A stretch of DNA of 64,000 nucleotides. Source: an uncultured Gammaproteobacteria bacterium. GTDB taxonomy: Bacteria > Patescibacteriota > Microgenomatia > Levybacterales > UBA12049. Under the pieces are notes generated by a model, which was given only the letters and a program-made list of their open reading frames with translations, ran no database searches and was not told the origin of the DNA. The translations under genes and the position numbers were made by a program. The stretch lies in NCBI GenBank assembly GCA_964610465.1, contig CAZSWA010000006.1, positions 4,332-68,331 of the forward strand. Reading direction: 5' to 3'. This document shows, one piece after another, positions 13,889 through 56,423 of the stretch (its first letter is position 1; every line of letters begins with the position of its first letter).

Positions 13889-14825
13889 AGAACTTATTTC
13901 ATATCTTAAACTTCTTGAAGAGGATATTCAGCTTGCGCTTGTTCCACTTATACTTTTGACTATTTTTATCATCATAAGTATTCTGAATGCAAACACAGAG
14001 TATCAGTTATATAGAAACAAACTTTTTCCGGTTGATGTGTCAACCAAGGTAAACCCTTATCCTATGACAAGCGGAATAATCAACCCACCTATTAGTGCAA
14101 AAGCTGCAATTGTCATGGATGATGCAACCCATGTAGTACTGTTTGAAAAAAATCCTGCTATCCGGTTTTCTATGGCATCAACAACCAAAATTATGACTGC
14201 ACTTGTCGCACTTGATTATTATAAAACAGACTCACTTCTAACTGTCAAAACCGCAACTATTGAGGGATCTCTTATAGGACTTCAAGTTGGGGAGACATTT
14301 CGGTTTAAGGACTTACTCTATGCGATGCTTCTGCCTTCTGCAAATGACGCTGCGATAGCAATTGCAGATAATTATCCGGGAGGATTGGAAGCATTTGTGA
14401 ATGAAATGAATGCAAAGGCGTTTAGTCTTCATCTTCTCAATACGCATTATGCAGATCCAGCAGGTCTTGATGATGATGGTAACTATACCACAGTTACAGA
14501 CCTTGCTCAGCTTGCGTCCTTTGCTGAACGAAATCCATTATTTGCCAAGGTTACTTCAACCAGACAAACAAGTATCTCAACTATTGACAATAGGAGACAA
14601 TTTATACTTTATAATCTTAATAAACTTTTGGGAACAAACGGGATTGATGGTATAAAAACGGGTACTACAGAAGGAGCAGGTGAAGTGTTGGTGACTTCTG
14701 AAGTTACCAGAGGTCATAGGTTTATCATTATTGTTATGAAAAGTGAAGATAGATTTCTTGATACGCTCTCAATTTTATCTGCTGTAAATAATACTATCGG
14801 CTATCTAACTCCCTTATATCCATAG
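13842..14825 (+). CDS. Serine-type D-Ala-D-Ala carboxypeptidase (peptidase S11, PBP5-like), membrane-anchored
   Basis: SxxK (ASTTK), SxN (SANDAA), KTG (KTGTT) motifs; N-terminal TM; start uncertain (ORF begins 13797 and overlaps aspS 3' end). Confidence 0.7.
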   Translation: MKDFQLLIKLLLKISKELISYLKLLEEDIQLALVPLILLTIFIIISILNANTEYQLYRNKLFPVDVSTKVNPYPMTSGIINPPISAKAAIVMDDATHVVLFEKNPAIRFSMASTTKIMTALVALDYYKTDSLLTVKTATIEGSLIGLQVGETFRFKDLLYAMLLPSANDAAIAIADNYPGGLEAFVNEMNAKAFSLHLLNTHYADPAGLDDDGNYTTVTDLAQLASFAERNPLFAKVTSTRQTSISTIDNRRQFILYNLNKLLGTNGIDGIKTGTTEGAGEVLVTSEVTRGHRFIIIVMKSEDRFLDTLSILSAVNNTIGYLTPLYP

Positions 14826-14876: not shown

Positions 14877-16034
14877 CTATTTTATCCATGCATCCTGAAT
14901 TGCTGATACATACGCAAAAAATCCGTTATCTCCTTCAAATACAATAACTGGCATGACATAATCCTGCAGAGTATTCCCAAGATAGTATGCTAAGAAAATA
15001 TTGGTTATATGTACATTGTTTGATGAACCATAGAAAGATGCAACATATCCTTTTCCGCTCTTCAGTTCTTCAAATGCTTGCTGAGCTGTTTTGATAGGGT
15101 AGGTTGCGTCTTTGGCAGCTCTATCTATTTTTTGGTGTGTATAATGTGCTTGTACCACAGTGGTATCATTATCTCCTGAGCCGACGAGAAAATTTATCGT
15201 TGAGTAAGGTGGATGAGGATAGAGAATTGGAATGTCCATTTTTATCTTTTGTGAGTCAGGACTGCTTAGCGTATGTTTTCCTGTATCAAGCGGATAAGTT
15301 AAATTGCTCTGATACATATCAACGCGTATGATATTGGCAGAGGATAAGCTGGTAGTTTGTACGAGTGTCCCGTTTTGTATTGCAAATAGTTGAGGATAGG
15401 TGAGATAATTAATATCTCTTGATGGGTTTGTTGTTTTGCTCAAATCAATATCGTCAGGGAATAATTCCATAGAATCAAGCAAAGCTTTACTTATTTTTAC
15501 AGCATTATCCTCATTATCAAGATGAAGCGCTGAGATAACAGATGGATATGTTAAAAATCTGGAATTCATAACAAAATTAAATGTTACAATGTTCATAATT
15601 ACCTGTCTATTCATGCCTTGCGGTTCATCCCATTCATAATTTGCATTGCCCAGAGAAGTTTCTGGTACCAAATGTCCTTGTGAATCAGTTATTCCAAGTG
15701 CAGACATTTTACTTTTCGTTTTATCAAGGTTTAGAAAATTTGCTTCAGGATGAATAATTGGATAGATATTAACTCTATCTACTAAGTCAGGGGGTTTTCC
15801 AGACAACGTATCAAGCGTATAAGTAAGTGGTGAAGTAGTAGCATTGGCAGGAAATGTAATTGCCGGGATTTTCCCGTAAAGAACATTTGGAGGGTCAGTT
15901 CTTGGAGGGTTGAGTGCATCAATGATAGTAAGAGTGACCTTATACAATATAAAAAGTAAAATAAGCGCAGTTATCCCAATAGCGCCGCCAATACTACCTT
16001 TTATTAAATATATTTGTGTCTGGTGGAGGGTCAT
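14877..16034 (-). CDS. Hypothetical membrane-anchored extracytoplasmic protein
   Basis: Long ORF (to 16136; start placed at MTLHQTQ to avoid gltX overlap); single N-terminal TM; no motif. Confidence 0.35.
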   Translation of the reverse strand: MTLHQTQIYLIKGSIGGAIGITALILLFILYKVTLTIIDALNPPRTDPPNVLYGKIPAITFPANATTSPLTYTLDTLSGKPPDLVDRVNIYPIIHPEANFLNLDKTKSKMSALGITDSQGHLVPETSLGNANYEWDEPQGMNRQVIMNIVTFNFVMNSRFLTYPSVISALHLDNEDNAVKISKALLDSMELFPDDIDLSKTTNPSRDINYLTYPQLFAIQNGTLVQTTSLSSANIIRVDMYQSNLTYPLDTGKHTLSSPDSQKIKMDIPILYPHPPYSTINFLVGSGDNDTTVVQAHYTHQKIDRAAKDATYPIKTAQQAFEELKSGKGYVASFYGSSNNVHITNIFLAYYLGNTLQDYVMPVIVFEGDNGFFAYVSAIQDAWIK

Positions 16035-16072
16035 ATCTTGAGTATAAGGGAAATTTGAAGTACAATGCAACC

Positions 16073-17476
16073 ATGGTACGAACACGAATGGCGCCAAGTC
16101 CAACAGGAGAATATCATATTGGACACATACGGACAATTTTGTATGATATAGCCTTTGCGAAGAAACATAAGGGCAAATTTATTATACGAATTGAAGACAC
16201 GGATAGAGGCCGATATGTGGAAGGTGCAATGGATAGAATTCTGGATGTGATTAAGGATTATGGATTTACATGGGATGAAGGTCCCCGGGTTGGCGGATCG
16301 TATGGTCCATATATCCAATCAGAGAGATTACCGATTTATAAAAAGTATGCATTAGAACTTGTTGATAAAAAAGCTGCATATTATTGCTTTTGTACTACGG
16401 AACGCTTGGAACAAATGCGTGAAGAACAAAAAAAGCGAGGAATTACTTCTCCCAAATACGATAAATTTTGTTTACGTCTGACACAAGAAGAGATAGAAAA
16501 AAATCTCAAAGAAGAGAAGCCATATGTTATACGACTCAACGTAGTTCCAGACAAGATAATCACTTTTGACGATGTGGTATTTGGCAAAATCAGCGTCAAC
16601 AGTAATGAGATTGATGATCAAATTCTTCTCAAGTCTGATGGATTTCCTACATATCATCTGGCAGTAGTGATAGATGATCATCTCATGGAAATAACTCACA
16701 TTCTTCGTGGTAATGATTGGTTGCCTTCAACACCAAAACATATCATATTGTATGATGCATTTGGGTGGGAATTGCCGACTTATATCCATCTTCCCAATCT
16801 CAAAGAACTGGGCAGTACGAAAAAACTTTCCAAACGATTTGGTCCTGTTTCTGCAAGAGAATTTTTGGATGCAGGATATTTGCCAGAAGCTATGATAAAT
16901 TTTCTCATGTTTTTGGGCTGGAATCCTGGAACAGAGAAAGAAATTTATTCCTTTGAAGAATTTGTAAAAGATTTTGATGTCCACAAAATCCATAAAACAG
17001 ATTTGGTGGCATTTAATCGTGAAAAACTTGACTGGATGAATGGGTATTATATTCAAAATATGCCTACAGAACAATTACTGGAAAGGCTCAAAACATTTTA
17101 TAACGCTGATGAAGACATGCAGAAATTTTTCCATCATAACAAATCATATCTTCTCTCTCTGGTAGAGCTTGCCAAAACTCGTATAAAGAGGCTTAAAGAA
17201 TTTAAAGATATCGTTCTTCCATCTGATACTCCTTTGTCAGATGAAGAGAAGAAAGTGGCTCACGTATTAAATAAAGAGTTCACCAAAATTTCTGATTGGA
17301 ACAAGGACACTATTCTTGCTGCTATGCGTGCGACATTCAAAACAACAAGTGCCAAAGGCAATATGCTCTACAAAATTCTCACAGGACGTGATAAAGGTTT
17401 ACCGCTTCCTGAAACCCTTACCCTTTTTGGAAAAGAAAAAACACTGGCAATGCTTAAAAAGCATATCACACAATGA
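16073..17476 (+). CDS. gltX: Glutamyl-tRNA synthetase
   Basis: HIGH motif PSPTGEYHIGH and KMSKS-like KLSKRFG; start placed at MVRTRMAPSPTG. Confidence 0.85.
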   Translation: MVRTRMAPSPTGEYHIGHIRTILYDIAFAKKHKGKFIIRIEDTDRGRYVEGAMDRILDVIKDYGFTWDEGPRVGGSYGPYIQSERLPIYKKYALELVDKKAAYYCFCTTERLEQMREEQKKRGITSPKYDKFCLRLTQEEIEKNLKEEKPYVIRLNVVPDKIITFDDVVFGKISVNSNEIDDQILLKSDGFPTYHLAVVIDDHLMEITHILRGNDWLPSTPKHIILYDAFGWELPTYIHLPNLKELGSTKKLSKRFGPVSAREFLDAGYLPEAMINFLMFLGWNPGTEKEIYSFEEFVKDFDVHKIHKTDLVAFNREKLDWMNGYYIQNMPTEQLLERLKTFYNADEDMQKFFHHNKSYLLSLVELAKTRIKRLKEFKDIVLPSDTPLSDEEKKVAHVLNKEFTKISDWNKDTILAAMRATFKTTSAKGNMLYKILTGRDKGLPLPETLTLFGKEKTLAMLKKHITQ

Positions 17477-19884: not shown

Positions 19885-20835
19885 ATGTCTAAGGAATTAC
19901 CTTTTTCATTGAGAACAGGAGAAGTGGCTCCTAATAAAAGCAGAATCGGGTTTGATAGCTTATTAAAACTGGATAGAGTTGCAGATGGAGAAGCAGCTAG
20001 GATTGCTCTAGCAAAGGAAGGAGTTAGTGCGATATTCAAAGAAACCTCCGGTGGAATCCCCTTGAATGAAGATCTTCTACGAATGATAGGTTCTGACTAT
20101 ATTAAGCGTTGGGAACTTATATATTGTTCTATTGCGCCTTCAATGCTGATTATTGGAGGAGAAAAACCAGAAGAAGGAAGGCTTGAACTAGATGATGCAA
20201 CTGCAACTATTTTTCTAAATCGCCATGTTCATGCTGGTACAAACAATAAAGTAGTATTTTACTCTGCTCGTTTTGCAGATATTATTCCTGATACAAAAAC
20301 CATACTGGAATTTTCTTACGGTGATCCTGATATATCGAAAAGCAGAAAAAAAGAAATTCCATTTAGTTTCCGATTAAGTCATATTGGATTTTCTGTTTCT
20401 CCTAAAGAGTTACCAGAAGATCCTTCTCAATTATTAAGTGGTAGTGGCATTTATGTTGGACATGGTATAAAAAATACTTCTAATGGTCAAACCATCTATA
20501 CTCCATGTTACGAGACATTTCCAATGGATAGAGAAATAGATATATTATTTGATAATGAATTAGACTTTTATTCTGGTTCTGTTATCACAGAACGAATGAG
20601 AAAACGAACTGGAGAGGATAAGAGAATGTTACGGACAGAATATAATGAATGGGCAAGAAAACCGGAGCATGTTATCTATTTAGGTGGAGAACGTGAAAAT
20701 TCACATGATCCAGCAGGAGCATCAGGATTCTATTCACATGCTGATGAAGAACAAGTATGGTTTGGGAGAAATATACAAGATTTACGAGAAGGTATCTCCT
20801 GGAGAGTAAGTTTACCACAATTCTTGAAAAGATAG
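19885..20835 (+). CDS. Hypothetical protein (316 aa, soluble)
   Basis: Long ORF with coding-like composition; no recognisable domain. Confidence 0.35.
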   Translation: MSKELPFSLRTGEVAPNKSRIGFDSLLKLDRVADGEAARIALAKEGVSAIFKETSGGIPLNEDLLRMIGSDYIKRWELIYCSIAPSMLIIGGEKPEEGRLELDDATATIFLNRHVHAGTNNKVVFYSARFADIIPDTKTILEFSYGDPDISKSRKKEIPFSFRLSHIGFSVSPKELPEDPSQLLSGSGIYVGHGIKNTSNGQTIYTPCYETFPMDREIDILFDNELDFYSGSVITERMRKRTGEDKRMLRTEYNEWARKPEHVIYLGGERENSHDPAGASGFYSHADEEQVWFGRNIQDLREGISWRVSLPQFLKR

Positions 20836-42742: not shown

Positions 42743-43915
42743 ATGGATAATGTCATAGAAAAGATATATAACTGTACTTTAAAATTATTAGCATCTACAG
42801 ATACAAAAGAGTTATACAAATCAATTGTTGTGGAAGGAAAAGAACTGGTAAATGCAGAATTCGGATCAATTTATCTAGACAATAACGATACCTTTTCTTT
42901 AGCATATAGTTCATTACCATTTCTCAATAAATTTAAATTAAGACGTAATGGATTTGTACAAAAAACCTTTCAGACAAGGAAAATTGTTATTCTTCATGAG
43001 AAAGACATACTAAAAATACGGCCTGCCTTAGGTCGAAAAGCGATGCAGTCAGTAATTATGATCCCATTGTCCTATGTAAATAAATCAATTGGTGTGCTTT
43101 GTTTTAATTCTTCAAAGCAGGAACATTTTTCGGATAATGAGTTACATATATTAAAACTTTTTGGATCAATTGCCAGTCTCGCAATTACCAAAGCACACCA
43201 TCTTGATTCAGCAAAAAACGCCATAGAAATTAGAGATAGATTTATATCTCTTGCCTCTCATGAGCTAAGAACTCCTTTAACTTCTATTAACGGATATATT
43301 CAGCTTCTCTATGCGAAACTTGCAAATAAAGGTACTTCTGAATCCCGTTGGGTAGAAGAATTGTATAAAGAAAATATAAGACTGACAACCTTAATTAAAG
43401 AACTTTTAGATGTGAATAGAATAAAACAAGGTCAATTACACTTTGTTCTTAAAGAAGTAAATATTTTAGAGCTACTAGAAAAAGCAATAAAATTGATACA
43501 CGCCAATTATTCTGAAAGAGATGTCCAATTTAAAAACTTAGTAAAACAGAAAAATACTGTATTGGTCATTGGAGACTATGAGAAATTGCTTGATATTTTG
43601 AATGCGCTTCTCAATAACGCAGTAAAATTTTCTCCTCCTCATTCAAAAATAGTAGTAGCTATTGAATTAAAGGATCGTACAATTTTTATCCATATTAAAG
43701 ATAAAGGAAAAGGTATTCCCAAAAAAGATATTCCCAAAATTTTTGAAGGATTCTATAAACATAATATAGAACAATATAAAGAAGGAATGGGAGTCGGGTT
43801 GTTACTTGCAAAACATATTATTGAGTATCATAAAGGGAAATTGAGCATTATTTCAGAAGAAAATAAAGGGACAACAATTACAATAGAACTTCCGTCAATT
43901 CAATATACTCATTAA
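42743..43915 (+). CDS. GAF-domain sensor histidine kinase (soluble)
   Basis: GAF-like N-half, H-box HELRTPLTSINGYIQLL, HATPase_c (KDKGKGIP, GMGVGL). Confidence 0.8.
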   Translation: MDNVIEKIYNCTLKLLASTDTKELYKSIVVEGKELVNAEFGSIYLDNNDTFSLAYSSLPFLNKFKLRRNGFVQKTFQTRKIVILHEKDILKIRPALGRKAMQSVIMIPLSYVNKSIGVLCFNSSKQEHFSDNELHILKLFGSIASLAITKAHHLDSAKNAIEIRDRFISLASHELRTPLTSINGYIQLLYAKLANKGTSESRWVEELYKENIRLTTLIKELLDVNRIKQGQLHFVLKEVNILELLEKAIKLIHANYSERDVQFKNLVKQKNTVLVIGDYEKLLDILNALLNNAVKFSPPHSKIVVAIELKDRTIFIHIKDKGKGIPKKDIPKIFEGFYKHNIEQYKEGMGVGLLLAKHIIEYHKGKLSIISEENKGTTITIELPSIQYTH

Positions 43916-43946: not shown

Positions 43947-45563
43947 ATGATAAATAGCTTCATGAAAAGGAATTCAGGATTTACACTTATAGAACTTCTT
44001 ATAGTAATAGCAGTGTTATCTGTTATTTTGATATCTGTAATATTTTTTATGAATCCATTAGAAAATTTTGCAAAATCCCGTGATGCAGGAAGAATCAGTG
44101 AAGTAAATGAACTTGGAAGCGCTATCACAAGATTTATGACAAAAGGAAATTCTTCATATCCTATGTCTACACCAAACTGGCAGTCAACTATTCTTAAGGC
44201 AAATGCTGAGATAGCTGCTCCAATACAATCTACAGGAAGCAAATCATGTAACGCTGGCAACAATGAAGGTAATATTTGTTATATTTCAACAGGAGTTGAT
44301 GCAATTATCTGGACAAACGCAGAATCAAAAGCTGCTGCAATTATTGCTCAATGTCAACCAAATCAAGTTCCAGTGATTGCCTGGATAGCGTCTCAAGGCA
44401 GAACCGGATATACTTGTCTTGCAAATACTACTGCTGTTCCTTCTTCTGATGCCGCCAATAATATGTTTGATACTATTGTGTTATCTACTCCTAGTATAGT
44501 CATCGTATCAAATCAGCCGACTCCAACTCCTACTTCTACTCCATCAGGAGGAAGTATTATCATAATTTCATCATCAACAACTCCAAGCCCTACTCCTGTC
44601 AACAGAAATTATTACCCGGCTAATATCGATTTTCCTGCTTCAGGTGCTTATGGTCAGTATAGTCAAGCTGCTTTAAACAATCTAGGAATAAATGGGATAG
44701 ATATAAATATGAATTGGGTTGATGTAGAACCACAACAGGGAGTATATAACTTTGGACCAATTGACCAGGAAATAACAACATGGGTACAAGCGGGAAAGGA
44801 ATTTACTCTTGTCGTTCGTTATATTGCAGATACGGGTACCTGTACAGGTACACAATACATGCCACAATGGGAGATACAGCGCATTCCTCATTTTTGCGAT
44901 ACCTTAAAAGGAACTATAATTCCAAATTACTTTGATCAAACCTTTATCACCGATTTGGAAACATTTGTAAAAGCAATTGGCAGTCATTTTACCCAGAGTC
45001 CTTATAAAGCTAATTTAGCATATATTCGTGTTGGGTTAGGAGTAGCAGGAGAAGGATTCCCTATTTTTTCTTTAACAAGTAATCCTGATTGGTCACAACT
45101 TATAGCATATGGATATACTCCAGCTAGCTGGAGAGATTGGCAAAGAGCACGTATGGCCACTTTCAAAGCAGCATTTCCCTGGACAAAAGTTATTTATCCT
45201 ATTAATGTACAAGGTACAACTGATCCTGCCAACGGATTACCTTTACAGGTTTCTCAAGCTTATTGGGCCGCGGCAAATGGATTAGGAATTGGGTCTCAAA
45301 CTTTGTCACCAGGTTTTACCTATGCACAAATTAATACTATTGCTGCTTATATCAATAAAAATTATCCTGGGACTTACATCCAGTTTCAAACTAAAACAGG
45401 CGTAAATAGTAGTTCTACAGTTCAAGGAGATATACAAACAGCTCAAAACTATGGCGCAAGAAGTATTGAGTGGTATGAGAATGTTGTTGGGAACAATTCT
45501 TATACGCCTTTATTTCAGCAGTGGCAACAGTATGTGAACACAACATATGGGACAATGCCTTAA
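43947..45563 (+). CDS. Type IV pilin-like protein with Thr/Pro-rich linker and C-terminal glycoside-hydrolase-like TIM-barrel domain
   Basis: Prepilin signal KRNSG|FTLIELLIVIAVLSVIL (Gly-1, Phe+1, Glu+5); linker QPTPTPTSTPSGG...TTPSPTPV; C-domain motif NWVDVEPQQGVYNFGPIDQEI resembles GH5/GH42 family. Confidence 0.6.
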   Translation: MINSFMKRNSGFTLIELLIVIAVLSVILISVIFFMNPLENFAKSRDAGRISEVNELGSAITRFMTKGNSSYPMSTPNWQSTILKANAEIAAPIQSTGSKSCNAGNNEGNICYISTGVDAIIWTNAESKAAAIIAQCQPNQVPVIAWIASQGRTGYTCLANTTAVPSSDAANNMFDTIVLSTPSIVIVSNQPTPTPTSTPSGGSIIIISSSTTPSPTPVNRNYYPANIDFPASGAYGQYSQAALNNLGINGIDINMNWVDVEPQQGVYNFGPIDQEITTWVQAGKEFTLVVRYIADTGTCTGTQYMPQWEIQRIPHFCDTLKGTIIPNYFDQTFITDLETFVKAIGSHFTQSPYKANLAYIRVGLGVAGEGFPIFSLTSNPDWSQLIAYGYTPASWRDWQRARMATFKAAFPWTKVIYPINVQGTTDPANGLPLQVSQAYWAAANGLGIGSQTLSPGFTYAQINTIAAYINKNYPGTYIQFQTKTGVNSSSTVQGDIQTAQNYGARSIEWYENVVGNNSYTPLFQQWQQYVNTTYGTMP

Positions 45564-45573
45564 GCAAAGTTTC

Positions 45574-46245
45574 TTATTCTTTGATGACGTAGCCGAATCC
45601 ACGTACAGAGTGAAGGAGTTTTTTGGGATAGCCATTGTCAATTTTTTTTCTGAGGTAGCCCATGTAGACATCAACTACTCTGGTTTCTACTTCTGAGGAG
45701 TACAGCCAGATTCTACTTAAGATCATTTCTCGTGTTAATATTCTTCCTTTGTTACTCATTAAGTACTGAAGAAGTTTAAACTCCTGGGGAGTAAGTTGAA
45801 TAAGTTTTCCAGAGCGTTTAACCTCTAAGGTTTTATTATCTAACTCTAAATCATCAACTTTGAGCGTTGCATTGGTATCTCCTTGTTTTCTTAGCCTTGC
45901 TTTAATACGAGCTAAGAATTCATCAGCAACAAAAGGTTTGGTCATGTAATCATCAGCACCAAGGTTTAAGCCTTGAACAATATCATTGATGGAGTCTTTG
46001 GCAGTAAGAATGATGATAGGCAGGTCTTTATGTTTTTTTCTGATTTCCTGACACACTGCTTCACCACTCATGTTAGGAAGACCTAAATCAAGAACCACCA
46101 CATCCGGGTCTCCTTTTTTAAAGTATTCTAAAGCTTGAATACCATCTCCTACTGTATGCACAGCATACCCATTATCCAGCAACAACTCCTTCAAATACTT
46201 CTGCAATCCCTTATCATCTTCCACTACAAGTATTGTATGTACCAT
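45574..46245 (-). CDS. OmpR/PhoB-family response regulator (receiver + winged helix), copy A
   Basis: LVVEDD..., LDLGLP, TAKD receiver motifs; C-terminal wHTH VDVYMGYLRKK; ORF extends to 46284, start placed at MVHTILVVEDD. Confidence 0.85.
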   Translation of the reverse strand: MVHTILVVEDDKGLQKYLKELLLDNGYAVHTVGDGIQALEYFKKGDPDVVVLDLGLPNMSGEAVCQEIRKKHKDLPIIILTAKDSINDIVQGLNLGADDYMTKPFVADEFLARIKARLRKQGDTNATLKVDDLELDNKTLEVKRSGKLIQLTPQEFKLLQYLMSNKGRILTREMILSRIWLYSSEVETRVVDVYMGYLRKKIDNGYPKKLLHSVRGFGYVIKE

Positions 46246-46247
46246 AA
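45577..46247. repeat. Direct repeat A (~670 bp), near-identical to 50617..51287
   Basis: Sequence lines 45601-46227 match 50641-51267 base for base on inspection; boundaries approximate. Confidence 0.8.
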
Positions 46248-46402
46248 GTGCCCAAATTATAACAATATTTGTCCAGATTCTCAAAGGGGAAAATAAGAAA
46301 TGCGAAATAACCCTATATAAAATGTAAGAGTTTTGCTGCCGCGCTTGACTTCTCTTACCAATAGTTGTAGATTCTCTTACAATATTCTAATATTTAAATC
46401 AT

Positions 46403-47716
46403 ATGGATACTTACTCTTTACGAAACATGATTTATCAATCTATCCTAGAGCTTGCAACAGAAGAAGGAATAAATGCCTCCGGGAAAGAAGAAATATATGG
46501 ATGTATCTTTGGAAGAGATAGTTTTGTCACTATCCTTAAGATAATGAAATCACTTTCCAACACCAATTCAGCACCTTTTATTGAGACGCAATTACTTCTT
46601 GATATCTGCAGACGTTCACTTTTAACTCTTGTTCAGCTTCAAGGAAAAGAAACCAATATTGAAAGTGGAGAAGAACCTGGTAAATTTATCCATGAATACA
46701 GGAAAGAAAAATACGAAAGATTGGTCAATCGACCTGTCAAACCATGGTATCTCTATCCGGATAAAATTTTGCGTAATTATGACTCCATAGATTCTACACC
46801 TCTTGGACTTATTGCACTTTATAGATATTGGAATATAACTAAAGATGATACCTTTTTGCTACAAGTGTTACCAGCAGTTGAGTCTGGACTTAACTGGATT
46901 ATTACTTACGGAGATAAAGATAAAGATGGACTTATTGAGTATGAACTTCATAAAGAGAGAAAACATGGAGGATTGGTAGTACAATCCTGGACTGACTCTC
47001 ATGAATCAATTACTCAAGCTGATGGAAGATTTCCTGATTATCCAATCGCACCGGTTGAAGCACAAGGATATGCGTGGCTTGCTCTTAAACTCTGGTCTGA
47101 TTTTTATGCTGATACTTCCAGAAATTATGCCAAAACTGAAAATTTCGCTCACAAACTGGCAACTCAGGCAGAGCTCATGAAAAAACGATTTAATGAAATA
47201 TTTCTTTATGAGGATGAAGAACTGCTTTTCCCGGCTCAAGCACTTGACGGGAGCAAAAATCAATTACGCACAGTGACAGGGAATTCACTCCTTCTGCTTT
47301 GGGCGACATACTATAATAATGGTAAGTCCGAGTCAATTCTTGATGATACATTTATTCCTGATTTGGTGAAGCGTTCCTTTATGGATGATTTGTTTGACTC
47401 AGAAGCGGGTATCCGTACAATGAGTACAAAGGCTGCAACCTATATTTCAGGGCAAAATTCATACCATAATGGCAGTTTCTGGCCAAAGCTCAATGGTATG
47501 GTACATGAAGGACTTACAAACTGGAATTATTTGAAAGAAGCAGAGCATCTCAAAGAAGCAACCCTTAAACCTATTCAGTACTTTGGTACACCAATAGAAC
47601 TTTATGTGAAAGGAGAAAATGGAAACTATCTGCCATTTCGTAACTCTGCAGGCCGTGAAGGATGCAGGCAACAAGCCTGGTCAGCAGCTGTCGCCCTTGA
47701 TCTTCTAACCCTATAA
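46403..47716 (+). CDS. Amylo-alpha-1,6-glucosidase / glycogen-debranching-enzyme C-domain-like six-hairpin glycosidase
   Basis: GCIFGRDS motif near N-terminus and QAWSAA near C-terminus, as in GDE_C family. Confidence 0.55.
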   Translation: MDTYSLRNMIYQSILELATEEGINASGKEEIYGCIFGRDSFVTILKIMKSLSNTNSAPFIETQLLLDICRRSLLTLVQLQGKETNIESGEEPGKFIHEYRKEKYERLVNRPVKPWYLYPDKILRNYDSIDSTPLGLIALYRYWNITKDDTFLLQVLPAVESGLNWIITYGDKDKDGLIEYELHKERKHGGLVVQSWTDSHESITQADGRFPDYPIAPVEAQGYAWLALKLWSDFYADTSRNYAKTENFAHKLATQAELMKKRFNEIFLYEDEELLFPAQALDGSKNQLRTVTGNSLLLLWATYYNNGKSESILDDTFIPDLVKRSFMDDLFDSEAGIRTMSTKAATYISGQNSYHNGSFWPKLNGMVHEGLTNWNYLKEAEHLKEATLKPIQYFGTPIELYVKGENGNYLPFRNSAGREGCRQQAWSAAVALDLLTL

Positions 47717-47845: not shown

Positions 47846-50605
47846 ATGATAATAGAAGGTGATAGAAGACCTGATAATGGTTCTATCCATAACCAAAAAA
47901 TTCCCTTTGACACTCCTAAAATAGGAGATCCTCATGGAGAAGTTTCTGGTAGGATAGGATTTACAGAGTTGCAGCAACTCTATCAAGCTCCAAAAGAATC
48001 CCGTGAAGTAAAATCTCCAACAGGAAAAGAGTGGATGTTTGTAGTGGAAGGATATACTCCGGAAGATTCAATAGAAGAAGAACGAAGAGAAAGACTCCTG
48101 GCATTAGGAAACGGAAATTTTACGATTGAACAAAAAGGTATAGATGGTTCAATACATATGGTATATCAAAAAGGTTTTTACATGCGTAACTCGGAGTCAG
48201 AATCTTCTGATTCAAGTCCTGTTGCTGCTGCGTTTAATATCGCAGGTTTTGGACTCCATATCAATAACGGTGAGCATTTAAATCCACGTACTTCTGATTT
48301 ATCTGACATAAAGAGAGAATATGACTTACGTCATGCAACTCTTACCACTTCGTATACATGGCATGAGCATGATAAAGGTCAGGAAAGAAAAACTGATGTA
48401 GAAATTGAATTATTTGTGAGTCAAACAGACCCAAATATCATTGCAAGAAAAATAACACTTAAGCCAAATTATAATGGTTCGCTGACAGTGAAAATGGGTA
48501 TTGAAGGGAACGCAGATAATGGTGGTATAGATTTTGTTGAAGAAGCACAGACAGAAGAAGTAGATGCTAAGATAACCCATTATAGTGCAAAAGCAAGATC
48601 ACATACTGAAGTATCAAAACCCAAAGATATTGCAATCGCACATAAAATAGATACCAATAGTGATGATATACAAAGAAAAATACTGCATGAAAATAGAAGC
48701 ATACACCAGGATATTACTGTAGCTGAAGCAAAAGCAGGTCAACCGTTGGTATTTGAAGAAATTATCAGTCTGCATACGAGTGTTGACCAAAAGTATGGAG
48801 ATAAATTTGGATGTACACCAGGAGAAGCTGCAATAGCTGAAATTAAAGAGGTAAAAAATTATGATGAGCTTAAAAAAGCTCATATAAAAGCCTGGGATAC
48901 AATTTGGGAAGATTCTGAACTTGAAGTAGAAGGTGACCCTGAAGTTGTATTTGCGCATCATTTTAACCGTTCACATTCCTTACAAGATGAACGAGAAGGT
49001 TATGATGAAGGCAGCACTGGAGCAAAGTTTAATCCTAAGCCGAGAAAAGGGTATGGTAGGCGCTCATTTCATGATGATAGATATCGAGCCCATAAAAAAC
49101 CTGAACTTTTAGAAACACACTTAAACTTCCGAATGAAATTAATGGAAGCAGCAAGAAAAAAAGCCAAGAGAACCCTATATGATTTTCGAATGAGAACAGC
49201 AACAACAGATGAAGAACGGGCAAAAGCAGAAACGCTTTATCACTCAAACATTGATGAAGGAATCCATTTGCCCTGGGAAGCATACTCTCCACCAGAGGAC
49301 GGAGAAGACCCAGAAGGCGGTCCAAAATGGATAATAAATGCTAAAGGAGAAAAAGTTGAAGTAGAAGCACTAGAAGAAGAAATTCATATTAATGCTGCAT
49401 TTGTACGGCAGATAGTGGAGCTCTATCATATGACAGGAGATAAAGAAAAACTCAGGAAATTTGCTCCATTTATTTTGGAATCAGCAAGATTCTATTCACT
49501 TCGTGGTTCTGAAGATGGAGTATATCGTGGAGTTATGGGTACTAATGAATACCATCCTCATGTGGATAATAATGGTTTAACCCAGACATATAGTAAATAT
49601 ACTATTGATAAAGCGCTTTGGTTATTGCAAGAAGGAATTGTCACAGATGAACAAATAAAAGAATTACATCTTACACAAGAAGAACTAGATAAATGGGAAG
49701 ATATGAGACAAAAAATTCATATTCCTCTTAATACAAAGACAATGATACTTAGTGCATTTGATGGGTATGAAGAAAAACAACATATTGATTTAAACTCGCC
49801 AGAGTATAAAGGTGTTGTTGGAATGGATAGTTTTCTTCTAAAAAAAGGGATACATGTGAGAGACACTGATGTTATTAAACAACCTGATGCAACACTTGTA
49901 TTACGGGAACTTTATTATGATTTTCTCAATCTTCTTTCACCTGAACAACTTAAGGAATTACGATTGAATAATCCTGGAAAATCAGATAATGAGATAATGG
50001 CTCTTATTTTTAAGACCAATCAGAAGTACTATAGAGAACATACGTGTCATGGTTCATCTCTCTCTCCAAATGAAAATGTGATAGCAGATCTTTTGGCTGG
50101 TGAAGATCCAAATACTGTATTTGAAACATACAAAGAGACTATTGCTATGGATGTATCACACAAGAATACTCATAACACACAAGACGGGTTACATAGTGGA
50201 AATATAAATGCAGCAGAAAAAGCTTTAGATGAAGGCTATGGAGGTGTTACAATAAATAAAGACGGTATTCATATGATACCAAGACTTCCTGATGCTAGTA
50301 AAATCTCAGTTATTCGAAGTACTGAATATTATAATGGAAATAAAGTAGGGATTGAAGTAAATCAAAATACAAATAAAATTACTGCAACTGCACTGGAATT
50401 TGCGCAAGGTGAAGAAGGAAGTGTGCCTGTATACTTAAATGGCAATTTTATATCCCTTTCAAGGGAGCATCGAACTGAATCAGTTGCACTTAAAGATACA
50501 GCTCAAGAACAACAGGAAAAAACAATTTTCTCTTCTACGCCGAAATTACCACAATTTTCACTTCCTCAACAACCTATATTTAATGGACAAACCTACGCTC
50601 AATAA
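47846..50605 (+). CDS. Glycoside hydrolase family 65-like protein (disaccharide phosphorylase family) with large charged insertion
   Basis: GH65 N-domain signature EWMFVVEGYTPEDSIEEERRERLLALGNGNF; 919 aa with Lys/Arg/Glu-rich insert around residues 380-470. Confidence 0.55.
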   Translation: MIIEGDRRPDNGSIHNQKIPFDTPKIGDPHGEVSGRIGFTELQQLYQAPKESREVKSPTGKEWMFVVEGYTPEDSIEEERRERLLALGNGNFTIEQKGIDGSIHMVYQKGFYMRNSESESSDSSPVAAAFNIAGFGLHINNGEHLNPRTSDLSDIKREYDLRHATLTTSYTWHEHDKGQERKTDVEIELFVSQTDPNIIARKITLKPNYNGSLTVKMGIEGNADNGGIDFVEEAQTEEVDAKITHYSAKARSHTEVSKPKDIAIAHKIDTNSDDIQRKILHENRSIHQDITVAEAKAGQPLVFEEIISLHTSVDQKYGDKFGCTPGEAAIAEIKEVKNYDELKKAHIKAWDTIWEDSELEVEGDPEVVFAHHFNRSHSLQDEREGYDEGSTGAKFNPKPRKGYGRRSFHDDRYRAHKKPELLETHLNFRMKLMEAARKKAKRTLYDFRMRTATTDEERAKAETLYHSNIDEGIHLPWEAYSPPEDGEDPEGGPKWIINAKGEKVEVEALEEEIHINAAFVRQIVELYHMTGDKEKLRKFAPFILESARFYSLRGSEDGVYRGVMGTNEYHPHVDNNGLTQTYSKYTIDKALWLLQEGIVTDEQIKELHLTQEELDKWEDMRQKIHIPLNTKTMILSAFDGYEEKQHIDLNSPEYKGVVGMDSFLLKKGIHVRDTDVIKQPDATLVLRELYYDFLNLLSPEQLKELRLNNPGKSDNEIMALIFKTNQKYYREHTCHGSSLSPNENVIADLLAGEDPNTVFETYKETIAMDVSHKNTHNTQDGLHSGNINAAEKALDEGYGGVTINKDGIHMIPRLPDASKISVIRSTEYYNGNKVGIEVNQNTNKITATALEFAQGEEGSVPVYLNGNFISLSREHRTESVALKDTAQEQQEKTIFSSTPKLPQFSLPQQPIFNGQTYAQ

Positions 50606-51285
50606 TTACTTTTACTCTCTTTGATGACGTAGCCGAATCCACGTACAGAGTGAAGGAGTTTTTTGGGATAGCCATTGTCAATTTTTTTTCTGAGGTAGCC
50701 CATGTAGACATCAACTACTCTGGTTTCTACTTCTGAGGAGTACAGCCAGATTCTACTTAAGATCATTTCTCGTGTTAATATTCTTCCTTTGTTACTCATT
50801 AAGTACTGAAGAAGTTTAAACTCCTGGGGAGTAAGTTGAATAAGTTTTCCAGAGCGTTTAACCTCTAAGGTTTTATTATCTAACTCTAAATCATCAACTT
50901 TGAGCGTTGCATTGGTATCTCCTTGTTTTCTTAGCCTTGCTTTAATACGAGCTAAGAATTCATCAGCAACAAAAGGTTTGGTCATGTAATCATCAGCACC
51001 AAGGTTTAAGCCTTGAACAATATCATTGATGGAGTCTTTGGCAGTAAGAATGATGATAGGCAGGTCTTTATGTTTTTTTCTGATTTCCTGACACACTGCT
51101 TCACCACTCATGTTAGGAAGACCTAAATCAAGAACCACCACATCCGGGTCTCCTTTTTTAAAGTATTCTAAAGCTTGAATACCATCTCCTACTGTATGCA
51201 CAGCATACCCATTATCCAGCAACAACTCCTTCAAATACTTCTGCAATCCCTTATCATCTTCCACTACCAATGTAGTATTTACCAT
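50599..51285 (-). CDS. OmpR/PhoB-family response regulator, copy B
   Basis: Protein identical to copy A from residue 6 onward except for the C-terminal extension SKSNY. Confidence 0.85.
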   Translation of the reverse strand: MVNTTLVVEDDKGLQKYLKELLLDNGYAVHTVGDGIQALEYFKKGDPDVVVLDLGLPNMSGEAVCQEIRKKHKDLPIIILTAKDSINDIVQGLNLGADDYMTKPFVADEFLARIKARLRKQGDTNATLKVDDLELDNKTLEVKRSGKLIQLTPQEFKLLQYLMSNKGRILTREMILSRIWLYSSEVETRVVDVYMGYLRKKIDNGYPKKLLHSVRGFGYVIKESKSNY

Positions 51286-51592: not shown

Positions 51593-52951
51593 ATGGATTT
51601 GAAACTGCCCGGTTATAGACAAAAACAATTTATACGATTCTTACAACAAAACGGTACTTCCACAAGTGCATATAAGAAAAAAAGCCTACTAGTCTCTCTT
51701 GAATACATTTGGGCATTTCTCATTTGTGCATTTACGCTTCTCACACTTCTTCTTTTTTATGTCCCAATGACCCATACAAACAAAAGTAAATTTGTTTCAC
51801 CAATGGTTCTCGACTGGAAAAAGACTAATCTTAAACCACTTACCCAAAGTAAAAAAGGATATGAAGTATTTGGATTTGCACCCTATTGGACAATTAATAA
51901 ACTTGATAATGTTGATTTTAGTACATTGACCACTTTTTCTTACTTTGGCGTACCAGTTGATGCATATGGTAATTTGCAAAGAGATGATCAAGGGTATCTT
52001 ACATTTATAAGTGATAAGGCAAGTGATATCTTCAAAAAAGCTCATGCAACAAATACTAGAGTTGTCTTGACTGTTACCCAAATGGATAATTATTCTATTG
52101 CGTCTCTTCTTGATAATCCTGATGCACAAGCTAACGCGATTTCCCAAATAGTAACTGAAGTAAAAAATCGCGGTATCGATGGAGTAAACGTGGATTTTGA
52201 ATATGTAGGCGATCCAGGAGACGGATATCGTACAGAGTTTACCAATTTTGTGAGTAACTTAACTGATAAGCTGCATCAGCAAGTACCAAACTCAAAAGTA
52301 ACAGTATCTGTATATGCTCTTTCAGTACGCGATCCAAAACTCTACAATATTGCAAGTCTTGCAAAACATACGGACGGAATTTTTATGATGGCTTATGATT
52401 TTGCAGGAGTTGGTGCTGACAATGCGATGCCTACTGCCCCATTATATGGATACAATCAAGGAAAATATCCATATGATGTATCAACTGCGGTAAATGATTT
52501 TCTTAAAGTAATGCCATCTGAAAAACTCATTCTTGGAGTCCCGTATTATGGATATAACTATCTGGTTTATCAACCTCAAGTAAATAGCCAAACGCTTCCC
52601 TATTGGACATGGAAAGGTCAGCCAATGACACAGACATATTCTATCGCACAAGATGATATCCAGCCAACCATGGATGGTGTTGACGCGTATACCACTGGTT
52701 GGGATGCTGTAGGGGATGTAGGATACAAAGCCTATCATGATACGTATAACGATACCTGGAGAATGATATTTGTAGAAGATACCAAATCACTGGGGATGAA
52801 ATATGACTTCGCAAAAAATAAAAATCTTGCTGGAATAGGAATTTGGGCTCTTGGATTTGATGATGGTAAAAAGGAACTATGGGCATTATTACGACAAAAA
52901 TTCGGAGAGAAATTAGCTGATAGCAGAGGAGCAAACTATGGAACAAATTGA
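51593..52951 (+). CDS. Glycoside hydrolase family 18 (chitinase-like) protein, membrane-anchored
   Basis: N-terminal TM; catalytic motif DGVNVDFEY (DxxDxDxE). Confidence 0.7.
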   Translation: MDLKLPGYRQKQFIRFLQQNGTSTSAYKKKSLLVSLEYIWAFLICAFTLLTLLLFYVPMTHTNKSKFVSPMVLDWKKTNLKPLTQSKKGYEVFGFAPYWTINKLDNVDFSTLTTFSYFGVPVDAYGNLQRDDQGYLTFISDKASDIFKKAHATNTRVVLTVTQMDNYSIASLLDNPDAQANAISQIVTEVKNRGIDGVNVDFEYVGDPGDGYRTEFTNFVSNLTDKLHQQVPNSKVTVSVYALSVRDPKLYNIASLAKHTDGIFMMAYDFAGVGADNAMPTAPLYGYNQGKYPYDVSTAVNDFLKVMPSEKLILGVPYYGYNYLVYQPQVNSQTLPYWTWKGQPMTQTYSIAQDDIQPTMDGVDAYTTGWDAVGDVGYKAYHDTYNDTWRMIFVEDTKSLGMKYDFAKNKNLAGIGIWALGFDDGKKELWALLRQKFGEKLADSRGANYGTN

Positions 52952-54032
52952 AAAGATCTTACAAATAATTGAAGAGAATATCTCATTTTCACCTTTTCAA
53001 ATACGTATTTTTATCGGTACCTGCACTGCCATGTTTATCATGGTAGTATTGCAACATTTGGGTATTCAATCTCCGCTTAGGTTACAAAAATTAATTTCAC
53101 CAATTACTAAAAAAACAGATATTTTTATGACAATTCGTCAAAAACTTGATGGGAAACCTACTCAATATAAATTGCATGGACAATCATCACTTATCCAAAG
53201 CACATACGCTGCTTCAGATTACGATTCAGCCAATTCATATGCAGTGATAGATTTTGATTCAGGGAATGTTCTTGCACAGAAAGATATCAGTAAAAAAATT
53301 TCTATTGCCTCTCTCACTAAGCTTATGACTGCTGTTGTGGCACTTGATCTCACATCACCTGATGAGGTTTTTACCGTTACTCCGACTGCTGCAAATATGC
53401 CTCCCACAAAACTTGGACTTACTCCTGGTGAAAAATTAACACTTTATGAATTATTGCATGGTGCACTTATGACATCTGCCAATGATGCAGCAGAGGAGAT
53501 AAAAGATGGAATTAATCAAAAATATAACTCTGATATTTTTGTACGGGCAATGAATGAAAAAGCACAATTTTTAGGACTCAAAAACTCTAACTTTACCAAC
53601 CCGCAAGGACTTGATTGGGGCGATAATTATAGTAGCGTAGAGGATTTGGCAATACTTACAAATTATGCATTTACCAATTATCCTTTAATTTCAGAGATTG
53701 TCCAAAAAGATTTCCAGCATTTTGCAGCCAATGAAAACCACCCTCAAATGGATTTAAACAATTGGAACGGGTTGTTGGATGTATATCCAGATACAAAAGG
53801 AGTAAAGATAGGCAATACCAGAGCTGCCGGATATACCACAATTGCATTGTCTAACAGGGGAGGAAAAAGAATACTTGCAGTAGTACTAGGTGCTCCCGGA
53901 ATTTTACAAAGGGATCTATGGGCATCTGAACTTTTGGATTTGGGATACCAAAAGACGTTAAACCTTGATCCCATAAATATAACAGAGAGTCAACTAAAAG
54001 AAAAATATAACAGTTGGCAGTATTGGAATTAA
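52938..54032 (+). CDS. Serine-type D-Ala-D-Ala carboxypeptidase (peptidase S11), second paralogue
   Basis: SxxK (ASLTK), SxN (SANDAA), K(T/I)G (KIGNT); overlaps GH18 gene by 14 nt. Confidence 0.7.
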   Translation: MEQIEKILQIIEENISFSPFQIRIFIGTCTAMFIMVVLQHLGIQSPLRLQKLISPITKKTDIFMTIRQKLDGKPTQYKLHGQSSLIQSTYAASDYDSANSYAVIDFDSGNVLAQKDISKKISIASLTKLMTAVVALDLTSPDEVFTVTPTAANMPPTKLGLTPGEKLTLYELLHGALMTSANDAAEEIKDGINQKYNSDIFVRAMNEKAQFLGLKNSNFTNPQGLDWGDNYSSVEDLAILTNYAFTNYPLISEIVQKDFQHFAANENHPQMDLNNWNGLLDVYPDTKGVKIGNTRAAGYTTIALSNRGGKRILAVVLGAPGILQRDLWASELLDLGYQKTLNLDPINITESQLKEKYNSWQYWN

Positions 54033-54281
54033 AACTTTGTAAATAATCAAAAGATTTGAAAGGTGGTGAAGATTGATGAAGGAGTTTATAAGAAGATTGA
54101 TTAGTATATTTGGAAGAAAACCAGCCTACGCGCCAGTACGAGTGAGATAGTTTTTTTGCTTTTTTTACATTTTCCTCATGTGATATCTTCTATTATCTTG
54201 TATTCTCAAGATAAATCTTACAAATTTTTTTCAATTCCTTTACAAAGTAAACAGTATTGTATAGGTATACTTTTCACAAAA

Positions 54282-56423
54282 ATGAAACACCTAACTGCTC
54301 TTATCTATCCATACAAAACTGAACTATTAATTTCTTCAATAGCAATACTCGGTTTTGTGTTATTTATTCCTGTGTTTACCTATGTCTATTTTGCCAATGA
54401 TTTAAAAAGTAAAGATGCAATCATGAACAGGAATAATACAGGGATTATTTTAACTGATAGAAATAACAAACCATTTTTTACGTTTTATCAAGCAAAATAT
54501 ACAAGTTCTGTTTCCCTTTCTCAAATACCGGCGTTTGTGCAGGAAGCGGTTATTGCCTCAGAAGATAAAGATTTTTATCATCACTCAGGATTCTCATTCG
54601 TATCAATTATTCGTGCTTCATTATATGATTTGCTTCATCAGGATGTAAGTTATGGCGGCTCTACAATTACTCAGCAATTAGTAAAAAATGCCCTGTTAAA
54701 TTCCAATAAAAATTTTTTGCGAAAATATCAAGAACTGGTACTTGCACAAGAAATTGAAAGACGGTATAGCAAACAAGAGATTCTGGAAATGTATTTGAAT
54801 TCCGTATATCTTGGAGAAGGAGCATTTGGAGTTGATAATGCCGCACTCACTTATTTTGGCAAGCATGCAAAAGACCTCACTCTTGCACAAACAAGTTTTT
54901 TGGCTGCAATTCTCCCATCACCTTCAACTTTGTCTCCTTTTACTGGAAGTATTTTACAAGCAAAAGTGAGGCAAAGGATAGTTCTTGAAAAAATGTATGA
55001 GCAAAACTACATTAACAAATATCAAGAATTGCAGGCAGAAAAAGAACAGCTTACTTTTAATAATTCTAATCAAGATATCAATTCCTATGCTCCGCATTTT
55101 GCGCTCATGGTTCGGGACGAGCTTATAAAAAAATATGGTGAGGAATATATTTCCCGCTCAGGATTTCGAGTACGAACTACACTAGATCTTGAGAAACAAA
55201 AAGTTGCAGAACAAGCGGTCAAAAAACAAGTCACAAATCTCGCTCTCGATAATGTATCAAACGGCGCAGCGGTTGCAATTGATCCAAAAACCGGAGAAAT
55301 ACTTGCGCTTGTTGGGAGTACCAACTGGTATGATAATAAATTTGGCAAAATGAATCTGGCTACTACCCCTCGTTCTGTTGGTTCTTCCTTTAAACCTATC
55401 GTGTACTCGGCAGCTTTTGAAGAACATCTCATTACCCCTGCGACACTACTTCATGATGTGCCAACGGTATTTCCCGGAGGATATGCTCCTCTTGATTATG
55501 ATAGAAAATTTAGAGGAAGTGTAACAGTACGACGGGCATTATCAAATTCTCTCAATGTTCCAGCAGTTGAAGTAATGACAAAAGTAGGTTTACCTAACGC
55601 TCTTGCAATGGCAAAGAGACTTGGTGTCACATCACTTGGTGATCCATCAAACTACGGTTTGTCTCTTGTTCTTGGCACAGGTGAAGTTCCTCTTGTTGAG
55701 CTTACTGATGCTTATGCTGTTTTTGCCAACAATGGAATACATAATCAACCAGTAACAATACTTGATATTTATAATAAATACAATACAAAAGTGTATTACT
55801 ACAAACCAAAACCTCAGCAAGTGCTAAGTCCGGCTGTTGCATTTCTTATCTCATTAATTCTTTCTGATAACAACGCACGGGCTGAAGAATTTGGAAATTT
55901 GTTAACTATTTCACGGCCTGCTGCGGTTAAAACGGGTACGGCAGAGGATTATAAAGATGCATTAACTATCGGCTATACTCCAAGTCTTGTCGTTGGAGTA
56001 TGGGTTGGCAACAATGATAATAGCGTGATGGATAGTGTTGCAGGTTCCCTTGGGGCTGCGCCAATTTGGAAAGATATGATGGAAAATTATTTAGCAAATA
56101 CGATAGTTGAAAATTTTTCTCCGCCATCAGATATTGTACAAGCAAATGTTTGTGGCAATGGAACTGTAATACGAGATGGAAACAGAATATCATACGGTCA
56201 GACAGAGTATTTTATAAAAGGTACACAGCCTATCAATACTTTTTGTACTGTAGCTCCAAGAATTGCATTTCCAAATGGGGTAATTCCATCTCAGCAGCCT
56301 TTTCCAAATTACCAAAATCAAAGTCCAGATACCCAAAATATTGGTAAGGAAATACAAAAAAGAATACATGAGGAAATAAAGCAAACAGAACAAGCCAGAA
56401 AAACCAATGCTATATCTGAATAA
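54282..56423 (+). CDS. Class A penicillin-binding protein (bifunctional transglycosylase/transpeptidase, PBP1A family)
   Basis: GT51 motifs EDKDFYHHSGF, GGSTITQQLVKN; transpeptidase SVGSSFKP, SNS, KTGT; start placed at MKHLTAL. Confidence 0.85.
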   Translation: MKHLTALIYPYKTELLISSIAILGFVLFIPVFTYVYFANDLKSKDAIMNRNNTGIILTDRNNKPFFTFYQAKYTSSVSLSQIPAFVQEAVIASEDKDFYHHSGFSFVSIIRASLYDLLHQDVSYGGSTITQQLVKNALLNSNKNFLRKYQELVLAQEIERRYSKQEILEMYLNSVYLGEGAFGVDNAALTYFGKHAKDLTLAQTSFLAAILPSPSTLSPFTGSILQAKVRQRIVLEKMYEQNYINKYQELQAEKEQLTFNNSNQDINSYAPHFALMVRDELIKKYGEEYISRSGFRVRTTLDLEKQKVAEQAVKKQVTNLALDNVSNGAAVAIDPKTGEILALVGSTNWYDNKFGKMNLATTPRSVGSSFKPIVYSAAFEEHLITPATLLHDVPTVFPGGYAPLDYDRKFRGSVTVRRALSNSLNVPAVEVMTKVGLPNALAMAKRLGVTSLGDPSNYGLSLVLGTGEVPLVELTDAYAVFANNGIHNQPVTILDIYNKYNTKVYYYKPKPQQVLSPAVAFLISLILSDNNARAEEFGNLLTISRPAAVKTGTAEDYKDALTIGYTPSLVVGVWVGNNDNSVMDSVAGSLGAAPIWKDMMENYLANTIVENFSPPSDIVQANVCGNGTVIRDGNRISYGQTEYFIKGTQPINTFCTVAPRIAFPNGVIPSQQPFPNYQNQSPDTQNIGKEIQKRIHEEIKQTEQARKTNAISE

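Follow-up and report, generated by a model that had tools for sequence, protein, structure and literature searches.

Type IV pilins of modular build form a recognised class, of which Streptococcus sanguinis PilB (a pilin joined to a vWA module) has been solved structurally and S. sanguinis PilC carries a lectin module; a survey put the number of such proteins above 1,200, spread over 264 architectures, with many coming from Candidate Phyla Radiation (CPR) lineages (Raynaud et al. 2021, PMC8179133). Their effector modules mediate adhesion and are mostly binding modules, such as lectin, vWA and PA14 domains, and the authors of the survey argued that modular pilins probably sit exposed at the tip, although a flexible linker may also allow positions along the shaft (PMC8179133). 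Here we describe a gene at 43947..45563 (+) of a 64-kb stretch of contig CAZSWA010000006.1 (hereafter the window), which encodes a modular type IV pilin comprising a pilin joined in frame, via a flexible linker, to a (beta/alpha)8 barrel of the glycoside-hydrolase (GH) type. In contrast to the binding domains of known modular pilins, this module is an enzyme-type TIM barrel that falls below threshold in Pfam and belongs to an undescribed family. We know of no modular pilin of the glycosidase type that has been characterised.

A precedent may nevertheless be on record. The InterPro entry IPR013529 probably denotes the N-terminal domain of GH42, although a literature search yielded nothing to confirm the name. 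Dataset S1 of Raynaud et al. gives the combination 'IPR012902 - IPR013529' for two proteins (PMC8179133). If the entry does denote that domain, fusions of a pilin to a GH42-type domain may already be listed in that dataset, never having been discussed. A CPR pilus system described in a 2026 preprint was also considered; it consists of chaperone-usher-like pili and is irrelevant to a type IV pilin fusion.

The barrel itself invites comparison with two groups of solved glycosidases. Relative to the GH42 and GH35 beta-galactosidases of clan GH-A (1kwg, Thermus A4; 7kmn, Xanthomonas GH35), it carries Phe480 in place of the nucleophile Glu312, has a G-x-G-x-x-G-E motif where those enzymes have N-E, and lacks the trimerisation and C-terminal beta domains of GH42. 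Its fold resembles the cores of the GH14 beta-amylases (soybean 1bfn, Bacillus cereus 1b90, Paenibacillus 3voc), but it is ~120 residues shorter, does not possess the long beta-amylase loops, and shows marginal sequence homology to these proteins. New here is an unclassified GH42/GH14-like barrel with non-canonical carboxylates, which is alone in its family in being attached to a pilin.

Architecture of the fusion

The gene is a single open frame of 538 amino acids (aa) in the open reading frame (ORF) listing of the window; the public gene call (NCBI, Logan) starts at Met6 (43962) and yields a protein of 533 aa (P0001). Residues are numbered below in the 538-aa form unless stated otherwise. 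Four segments follow one another on the forward strand: (i) the leader of a class III (prepilin) signal (aa 1–11, 43947..43979), running from M1, or M6 at 43962, to G11; (ii) a mature type IV pilin module (aa 12–175, 43980..44471) with an alpha1N helix, a long alpha1 and a beta-sheet head; (iii) a Thr/Pro/Ser-rich linker of 46 residues (aa 176–221, 44472..44609), of sequence TIVLSTPSIVIVSNQPTPTPTSTPSGGSIIIISSSTTPSPTPVNRN; and (iv) the (beta/alpha)8 barrel, whose GH42/GH14-like family is undescribed (aa 222–538, 44610..45560; ~317 aa, 35 kDa). The original prediction had described this ORF as a pilin N-terminus followed by a Thr/Pro linker and a glycosidase-type C-domain of ~330 aa; the layout and the (beta/alpha)8 fold are borne out, whereas the domain is somewhat smaller than was proposed.

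The pilin module

The N-terminus, MINSFMKRNSG/FTLIELLIVIAVLSV, presents Gly at –1, Phe at +1 and Glu at +5 (Glu16), and cleavage of the leader is predicted between G11 and F12. Read from Met6, as MKRNSG/FTLIELLIVIAVLSVILISVIFF, it consists of a short hydrophilic leader ending in Gly, followed by Phe(+1), Glu(+5) and ~20 hydrophobic residues, as in prepilins. Both Pfam N_methyl (E 4.5e-8; 32.8 bits versus a cut-off of 21.2) and TIGR02532 (26.6 bits versus 16.3) match above their cut-offs, and the residues G6, F7, T8, L9, I10 and E11 (533-aa numbering) are invariant across 66 aligned pilins. The module comprises the hydrophobic alpha1N helix (aa 12–34), a long alpha1, a four-stranded beta-sheet head and four cysteines (Cys101, Cys111, Cys136 and Cys157), with three Cys invariant in the 66-sequence alignment. 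In the predicted structure the long N-terminal alpha1 packs on the antiparallel beta-sheet head, and the model resembles solved pilins.

Homology extends well beyond the signal. A search with residues 1–185 (533-aa numbering) recovered 229 homologues, of which the 120 listed are 130–212 aa long and nearly all carry N_methyl; the best share 40–46% identity over 82–89% of the query, and the named ones are Candidatus Woesebacteria. The matching standalone pilins are ~180 aa in length, with identity spanning the full pilin module, and in the 66-sequence alignment they end at ~170–175 of the query, where the Thr/Pro linker begins. The predicted local confidence (pLDDT) is below 50 at residues 173–178 (533-aa form), in the region of the linker start. 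Above-threshold matches, full-length homology and fold together identify the proposed prepilin-peptidase site and pilin-like head as those of a genuine type IV pilin.

The three closest pilin relatives examined are each encoded directly upstream of a Peptidase_A24 (PilD) gene, which is followed by further N_methyl/T2SSG genes (minor pilins) and PilM, with T2SSE/T2SSF nearby in one locus. Given this position in type IV pilus clusters, the module derives from the pilin type that heads such clusters in related genomes; it resembles a pilD-adjacent pilin rather than a dedicated minor pilin.

The barrel module

Structure prediction for aa 222–538 returned eight beta/alpha units with pLDDT 87 and pTM 0.87, confirming the TIM barrel that had been anticipated; the protein ends ~20 residues past the last barrel helix. 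The nearest solved folds in Foldseek are GH14 beta-amylases (TMq 0.66–0.72), followed by GH35/GH42 galactosidases (GH35 ~0.6). The earlier assignment to a GH5/GH42 type was not upheld, given these fold neighbours and a Pfam Glyco_hydro_42 match that is confined to aa 243–316 and, at 16.2 bits, falls short of the cut-off of 21. The W-V-D-V-E-P-Q-Q-G-V-Y-N-F segment invoked for that assignment is indeed present at aa 257–269, but WxxVEP is a general motif of barrel strand beta2 and is not diagnostic of GH5 or GH42.

Profile comparisons point to a more distant relationship with the same families. With a family profile of 139 sequences, hhalign gave 93.5% probability against Thermus GH42 1kwg and 70.6% against soybean beta-amylase (the reference sequences being identical or near-identical to the PDB chains), whereas a narrow 24-sequence profile gave a non-significant 0.4% against soybean beta-amylase. 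Among distant superfamily members, 33 of 60 match Pfam GH42 (best E 8.4e-11). Membership of GH14 was not accepted, as the narrow profile is non-significant and the broad one reaches only 70.6%. The barrel is placed in a branch of the GH42/GH35/GH14-like glycosidase barrels that has not been described. A profile search over 1.84 billion cluster representatives put the size of this family at 52 representatives with E<=1e-30, 310 with E<=1e-10 and 1,250 with E<=1e-3.

A search with residues 219–538 identified 25 homologues at 40–55% identity, none with a Pfam domain on record; all are 340–420 aa long except one of 528 aa. Close homologues share a common build, in which an N-terminal transmembrane (TM) anchor or lipobox and an S/T/P linker precede a domain starting 'YPANID'. 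These linkers and the two invariant barrel cysteines fit an extracytoplasmic location. Polysaccharide-processing glycosidases encoded in exopolysaccharide operons include PslG, PelA and BcsZ, and the free-standing barrels resemble such enzymes in being anchored ectoproteins: three of five loci are of the exopolysaccharide type (L006 8001–9179, L008 8001–9188 and L009 8001–9134), with GT4, a Polysacc_synt flippase, DUF1616 and PQQ propellers, and the other two are not. Acyltransferases and a sulfotransferase also occur in these three clusters, and the named relatives of the family are Ktedonobacteria-type. No relation to PslG, PelA or BcsZ in sequence or family came to light, no search having been aimed at one. 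The fused copy, unlike the PslG/PelA/BcsZ-type enzymes, lies outside an exopolysaccharide locus, its neighbours being two-component regulators, GH65, GDE-like and GH18 genes.

Putative catalytic residues

The landmarks of the barrel are WVDVEP (257–262), Cys299 and Cys317, GLGVAGE with Glu369 after beta4, YIQFQT on beta7 (477–482) and SIEWY on beta8 (506–510). The fused copy keeps every family-invariant residue, among them Glu369, Glu508, Trp509, Cys299, Cys317 and many aromatics (Trp257, Trp308, Tyr328, Trp395, Trp440 and Trp509). Glu369 occurs in 155 of 162 aligned superfamily sequences, and Glu508 in 82 of 99 aligned. Codons 480 and 508 lie at nt 45384–45386 and 45468–45470, respectively.

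Glu369 sits in the sequence V-G-L-G-V-A-G-E, which hhalign places opposite V-G-L-G-P-A-G-E of beta-amylase, so that Glu369 faces Glu186 (identified from the E186Q entry 1v3h) and the general-acid motif of GH14, G-x-[SA]-G-E, is present. The nucleophile Glu312 of 1kwg aligns with Phe480 on beta7, and the barrel family has F, Y, L or M in this column. The beta7 nucleophile of GH42 is accordingly missing, as is the combination of a conserved beta4 N-E with a beta7 Glu that typifies GH5, and with Phe480 in this position the classical pair of clan GH-A, the 'catalytic Glu pair' that a GH5/GH42 enzyme would have shown, is absent. Together with the sub-threshold Pfam score, this rules out a canonical GH42 or GH5 enzyme.

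The family nevertheless appears to have a substitute for the missing carboxylate. Among 91 representatives retrieved with the barrel profile and aligned over both strands, glutamates on beta7 and beta8 are mutually exclusive: none of the seven sequences with a beta7 Glu has one on beta8, compared with 76 of the 84 that have no beta7 Glu. This pattern in the alignments suggests that the second catalytic carboxylate has been relocated from beta7 to the neighbouring strand beta8.

Proposed function and its alternatives

We favour, as the reading with a reasonable though far from secure claim, a module displayed on a pilus that binds glycans and probably cleaves them. A prepilin peptidase whose gene lies elsewhere in the genome would cleave off the leader, and the pilin module would enter a type IV pilus by way of its alpha1 helix. 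Held off the fibre by the 46-residue Thr/Pro/Ser linker, at the tip or along the shaft, the 35-kDa barrel would bind, and probably cleave or remodel, a surface or matrix polysaccharide belonging to a partner cell or to the environment. Catalysis would proceed through Glu369, in the beta4 loop at what would be the GH-A acid/base position and at that of beta-amylase Glu186, and Glu508 on beta8, which appears to stand in for the usual beta7 carboxylate.

Several observations weigh against this proposal, on the side of both catalysis and assembly. The beta4 register of hhalign against GH42 is off by three residues, with the 1kwg acid/base Glu141 opposite Val366, three residues before Glu369; the GH14 alignment carries zero confidence in its C-terminal part, and the beta-amylase base Glu380 (beta7) falls in a gap, with no aligned counterpart in the barrel. 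Phe480 at the canonical beta7 nucleophile position excludes standard retaining hydrolysis, and the Glu369/Glu508 pair is a candidate proposed from alignments. As to the pilus, the 30 larger ORFs of the window scanned against Pfam include no prepilin peptidase, no PilB, PilC or PilM and no other pilin gene, so that assembly competence is argued from homology alone. In a six-frame translation of the window, the prepilin motif of the fusion is the only one. Polymerisation might also be hindered if a pilin of the pilD-adjacent type carries so bulky a module (35 kDa). Finally, the fusion is a singleton in one lineage and could be a recent neutral rearrangement.

The alternative that survives best, possible although clearly behind the reading above, is that the barrel is non-catalytic and lectin-like, in which case the modular pilin would only bind glycan and tether the pilus to the polysaccharide layer of a partner. 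Phe480 in the GH42 nucleophile column is what such a module would be expected to show; known modular pilins act mostly via binding modules of the lectin, vWA and PA14 kinds (PMC8179133), and the six invariant aromatics listed above suit sugar stacking. However, Glu369 and Glu508 are kept by the whole family, including its free-standing members in exopolysaccharide loci, and a beta8 Glu occurs where the beta7 Glu is missing, which resembles catalytic relocation rather than decay.

It is unlikely that the protein is no fibre subunit at all, its prepilin signal and pilin module acting as a membrane anchor or as an export or display device for a cell-surface enzyme like the TM-anchored homologues, in the manner of archaeal sugar-binding proteins with class III signal peptides. 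In all free-standing homologues the N-terminus consists of one TM anchor or lipobox ahead of a similar S/T/P linker; a pilin helix could substitute for that anchor, and the gene lies apart from any pilus cluster in the window. Yet the entire globular pilin head has been kept and not the helix only, with conserved cysteines and a confidently predicted fold, and the closest relatives are pilins adjoining pilD in type IV pilus clusters.

Uniqueness, authenticity and origin

Like the extra domain of other modular pilins, the barrel also occurs outside pilus proteins, its family counting 52 representatives with E<=1e-30, and the join falls at the natural C-terminus of the pilin. None of the relatives inspected shares the pilin. 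A regular expression for prepilin signals, run over ~195 representatives and close homologues, matched P0001 only, and the search that had been suggested for other pilins with a similar C-domain therefore found none in this set. Family members with long N-termini that were inspected carry TM anchors, lipoboxes, a dockerin-like repeat, or apparent TIG and carboxypeptidase-regulatory-like domains; in P0158 the barrel is fused to a PQQ-type propeller, and in P0170 to a dockerin-like repeat.

An independent Logan contig (SRR12266077; recorded in 6 samples) matches the window at 100% identity across 11,646 nt, a stretch that takes in the entire gene, and this excludes a one-off assembly chimera. 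The GC content at third codon positions (GC3) is 0.24 in the barrel part, 0.21 in the pilin part and 0.20–0.34 in host genes, with an overall GC of 0.38 for the barrel. A chimera caused by a sequencing error in the linker, the outcome that was to have undone the original prediction, is thus not what the identical assembly and the host-like GC3 indicate. Although the fusion is a singleton among the sequences inspected, barrel relatives come from unrelated phyla and the linker is of low complexity, it is highly improbable that a pilin and an anchored glycosidase-like gene were joined by a sequencing or assembly error, or a contaminant stitched on at the linker, given the second assembly, a frame open throughout, a barrel composition typical of the host genome and unlike that of high-GC Ktedonobacteria and Actinobacteria, and a join located exactly at the pilin's natural end.

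The aspartyl-tRNA synthetase (AspRS) encoded in the window is 70–80% identical to its best homologues, of which the named ones are Patescibacteria, Levybacteria and Levyibacteriota, with one labelled Limnocylindrales. These homologues and the Woesebacteria pilin matches place the host in the Microgenomates part of the CPR, in agreement with the small-genome type of organism first supposed. The relatives of the barrel are found instead in Ktedonobacterales, other Chloroflexi, Acidimicrobiales and Dormibacteria, and a scan of GTDB genomes with the barrel profile located four loci, all in other phyla, the window's own genome not being among them. The barrel was probably acquired by horizontal transfer from soil bacteria; if so, the module is fully ameliorated in codon composition.

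A bolder scenario, which we regard as improbable, would have a Patescibacteria episymbiont capture an exopolysaccharide-processing barrel from a filamentous soil host (of the Ktedonobacteria/Actinobacteria type) and graft it onto its own pilin. The result would be a retractable, enzyme-armed pilus that drills or grips host polysaccharide, much like a phage tail-spike depolymerase, and the barrel would represent a new GH family with its carboxylate moved from beta7 to beta8.

Genomic surroundings

A GAF-HisKA-HATPase histidine kinase identified with Pfam (42743..43915, +) ends 31 nt upstream of the pilin gene and may be co-transcribed with it. In locus L013 (4450–6534), a GAF-HisKA-HATPase kinase also lies directly upstream of a related standalone pilin (P0029), with pilD and a minor pilin following. 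We place little weight on this as conserved kinase–pilin synteny, because the two kinases are 31% identical over a generic core and their common ancestry is uncertain.

On its other side the fusion gene converges on an OmpR-type response regulator. Two copies of this regulator (45574–46284 and 50599–51285, both on the minus strand) are 99% identical over 222 aa and contain an exact repeat (45578–45877 and 50618–50917); the Logan contig ends at this repeat, 44 nt past the pilin gene. Between the two copies lies a 5-kb block with a GDE_C/MGH1-like hydrolase (46403–47716) and a GH65 protein (47846–50605). This arrangement may point to a duplication of recent date, to a cassette that is mobile or recombining, or to a risk of assembly collapse. 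Beyond the second regulator copy, 51593–56423 encodes a chitinase-like GH18 protein, then a D-Ala-D-Ala carboxypeptidase and a penicillin-binding protein of class A. Cell-wall and glycan functions cluster around the fusion. Elsewhere, a second S11 carboxypeptidase is encoded at 13797–14825, and the ORFs at 5433–6806 (+), 14877–16136 (–) and 19885–20835 (+), of 457, 419 and 316 aa, remain without a match in Pfam at E<=1e-4.

Significance

Among the mechanisms by which cultivated Patescibacteria locate hosts and adhere to them, type IV pili have the best support, and the targets of these pili are largely unknown. A glycosidase-type barrel on a pilin points to a concrete class of ligand, the polysaccharide of a partner cell or of the matrix. 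To our knowledge, no module of the enzyme type has been examined on a pilus before. The value of the finding is limited by the single occurrence of the fusion and by the predicted nature of its activity and assembly. The barrel family, with its 52 close representatives, its links to exopolysaccharide loci and its non-canonical carboxylates, is relevant to CAZy classification in its own right. Should the favoured interpretation be true, the organism would carry, on a fibre that can be retracted, a module that binds or cuts glycans.

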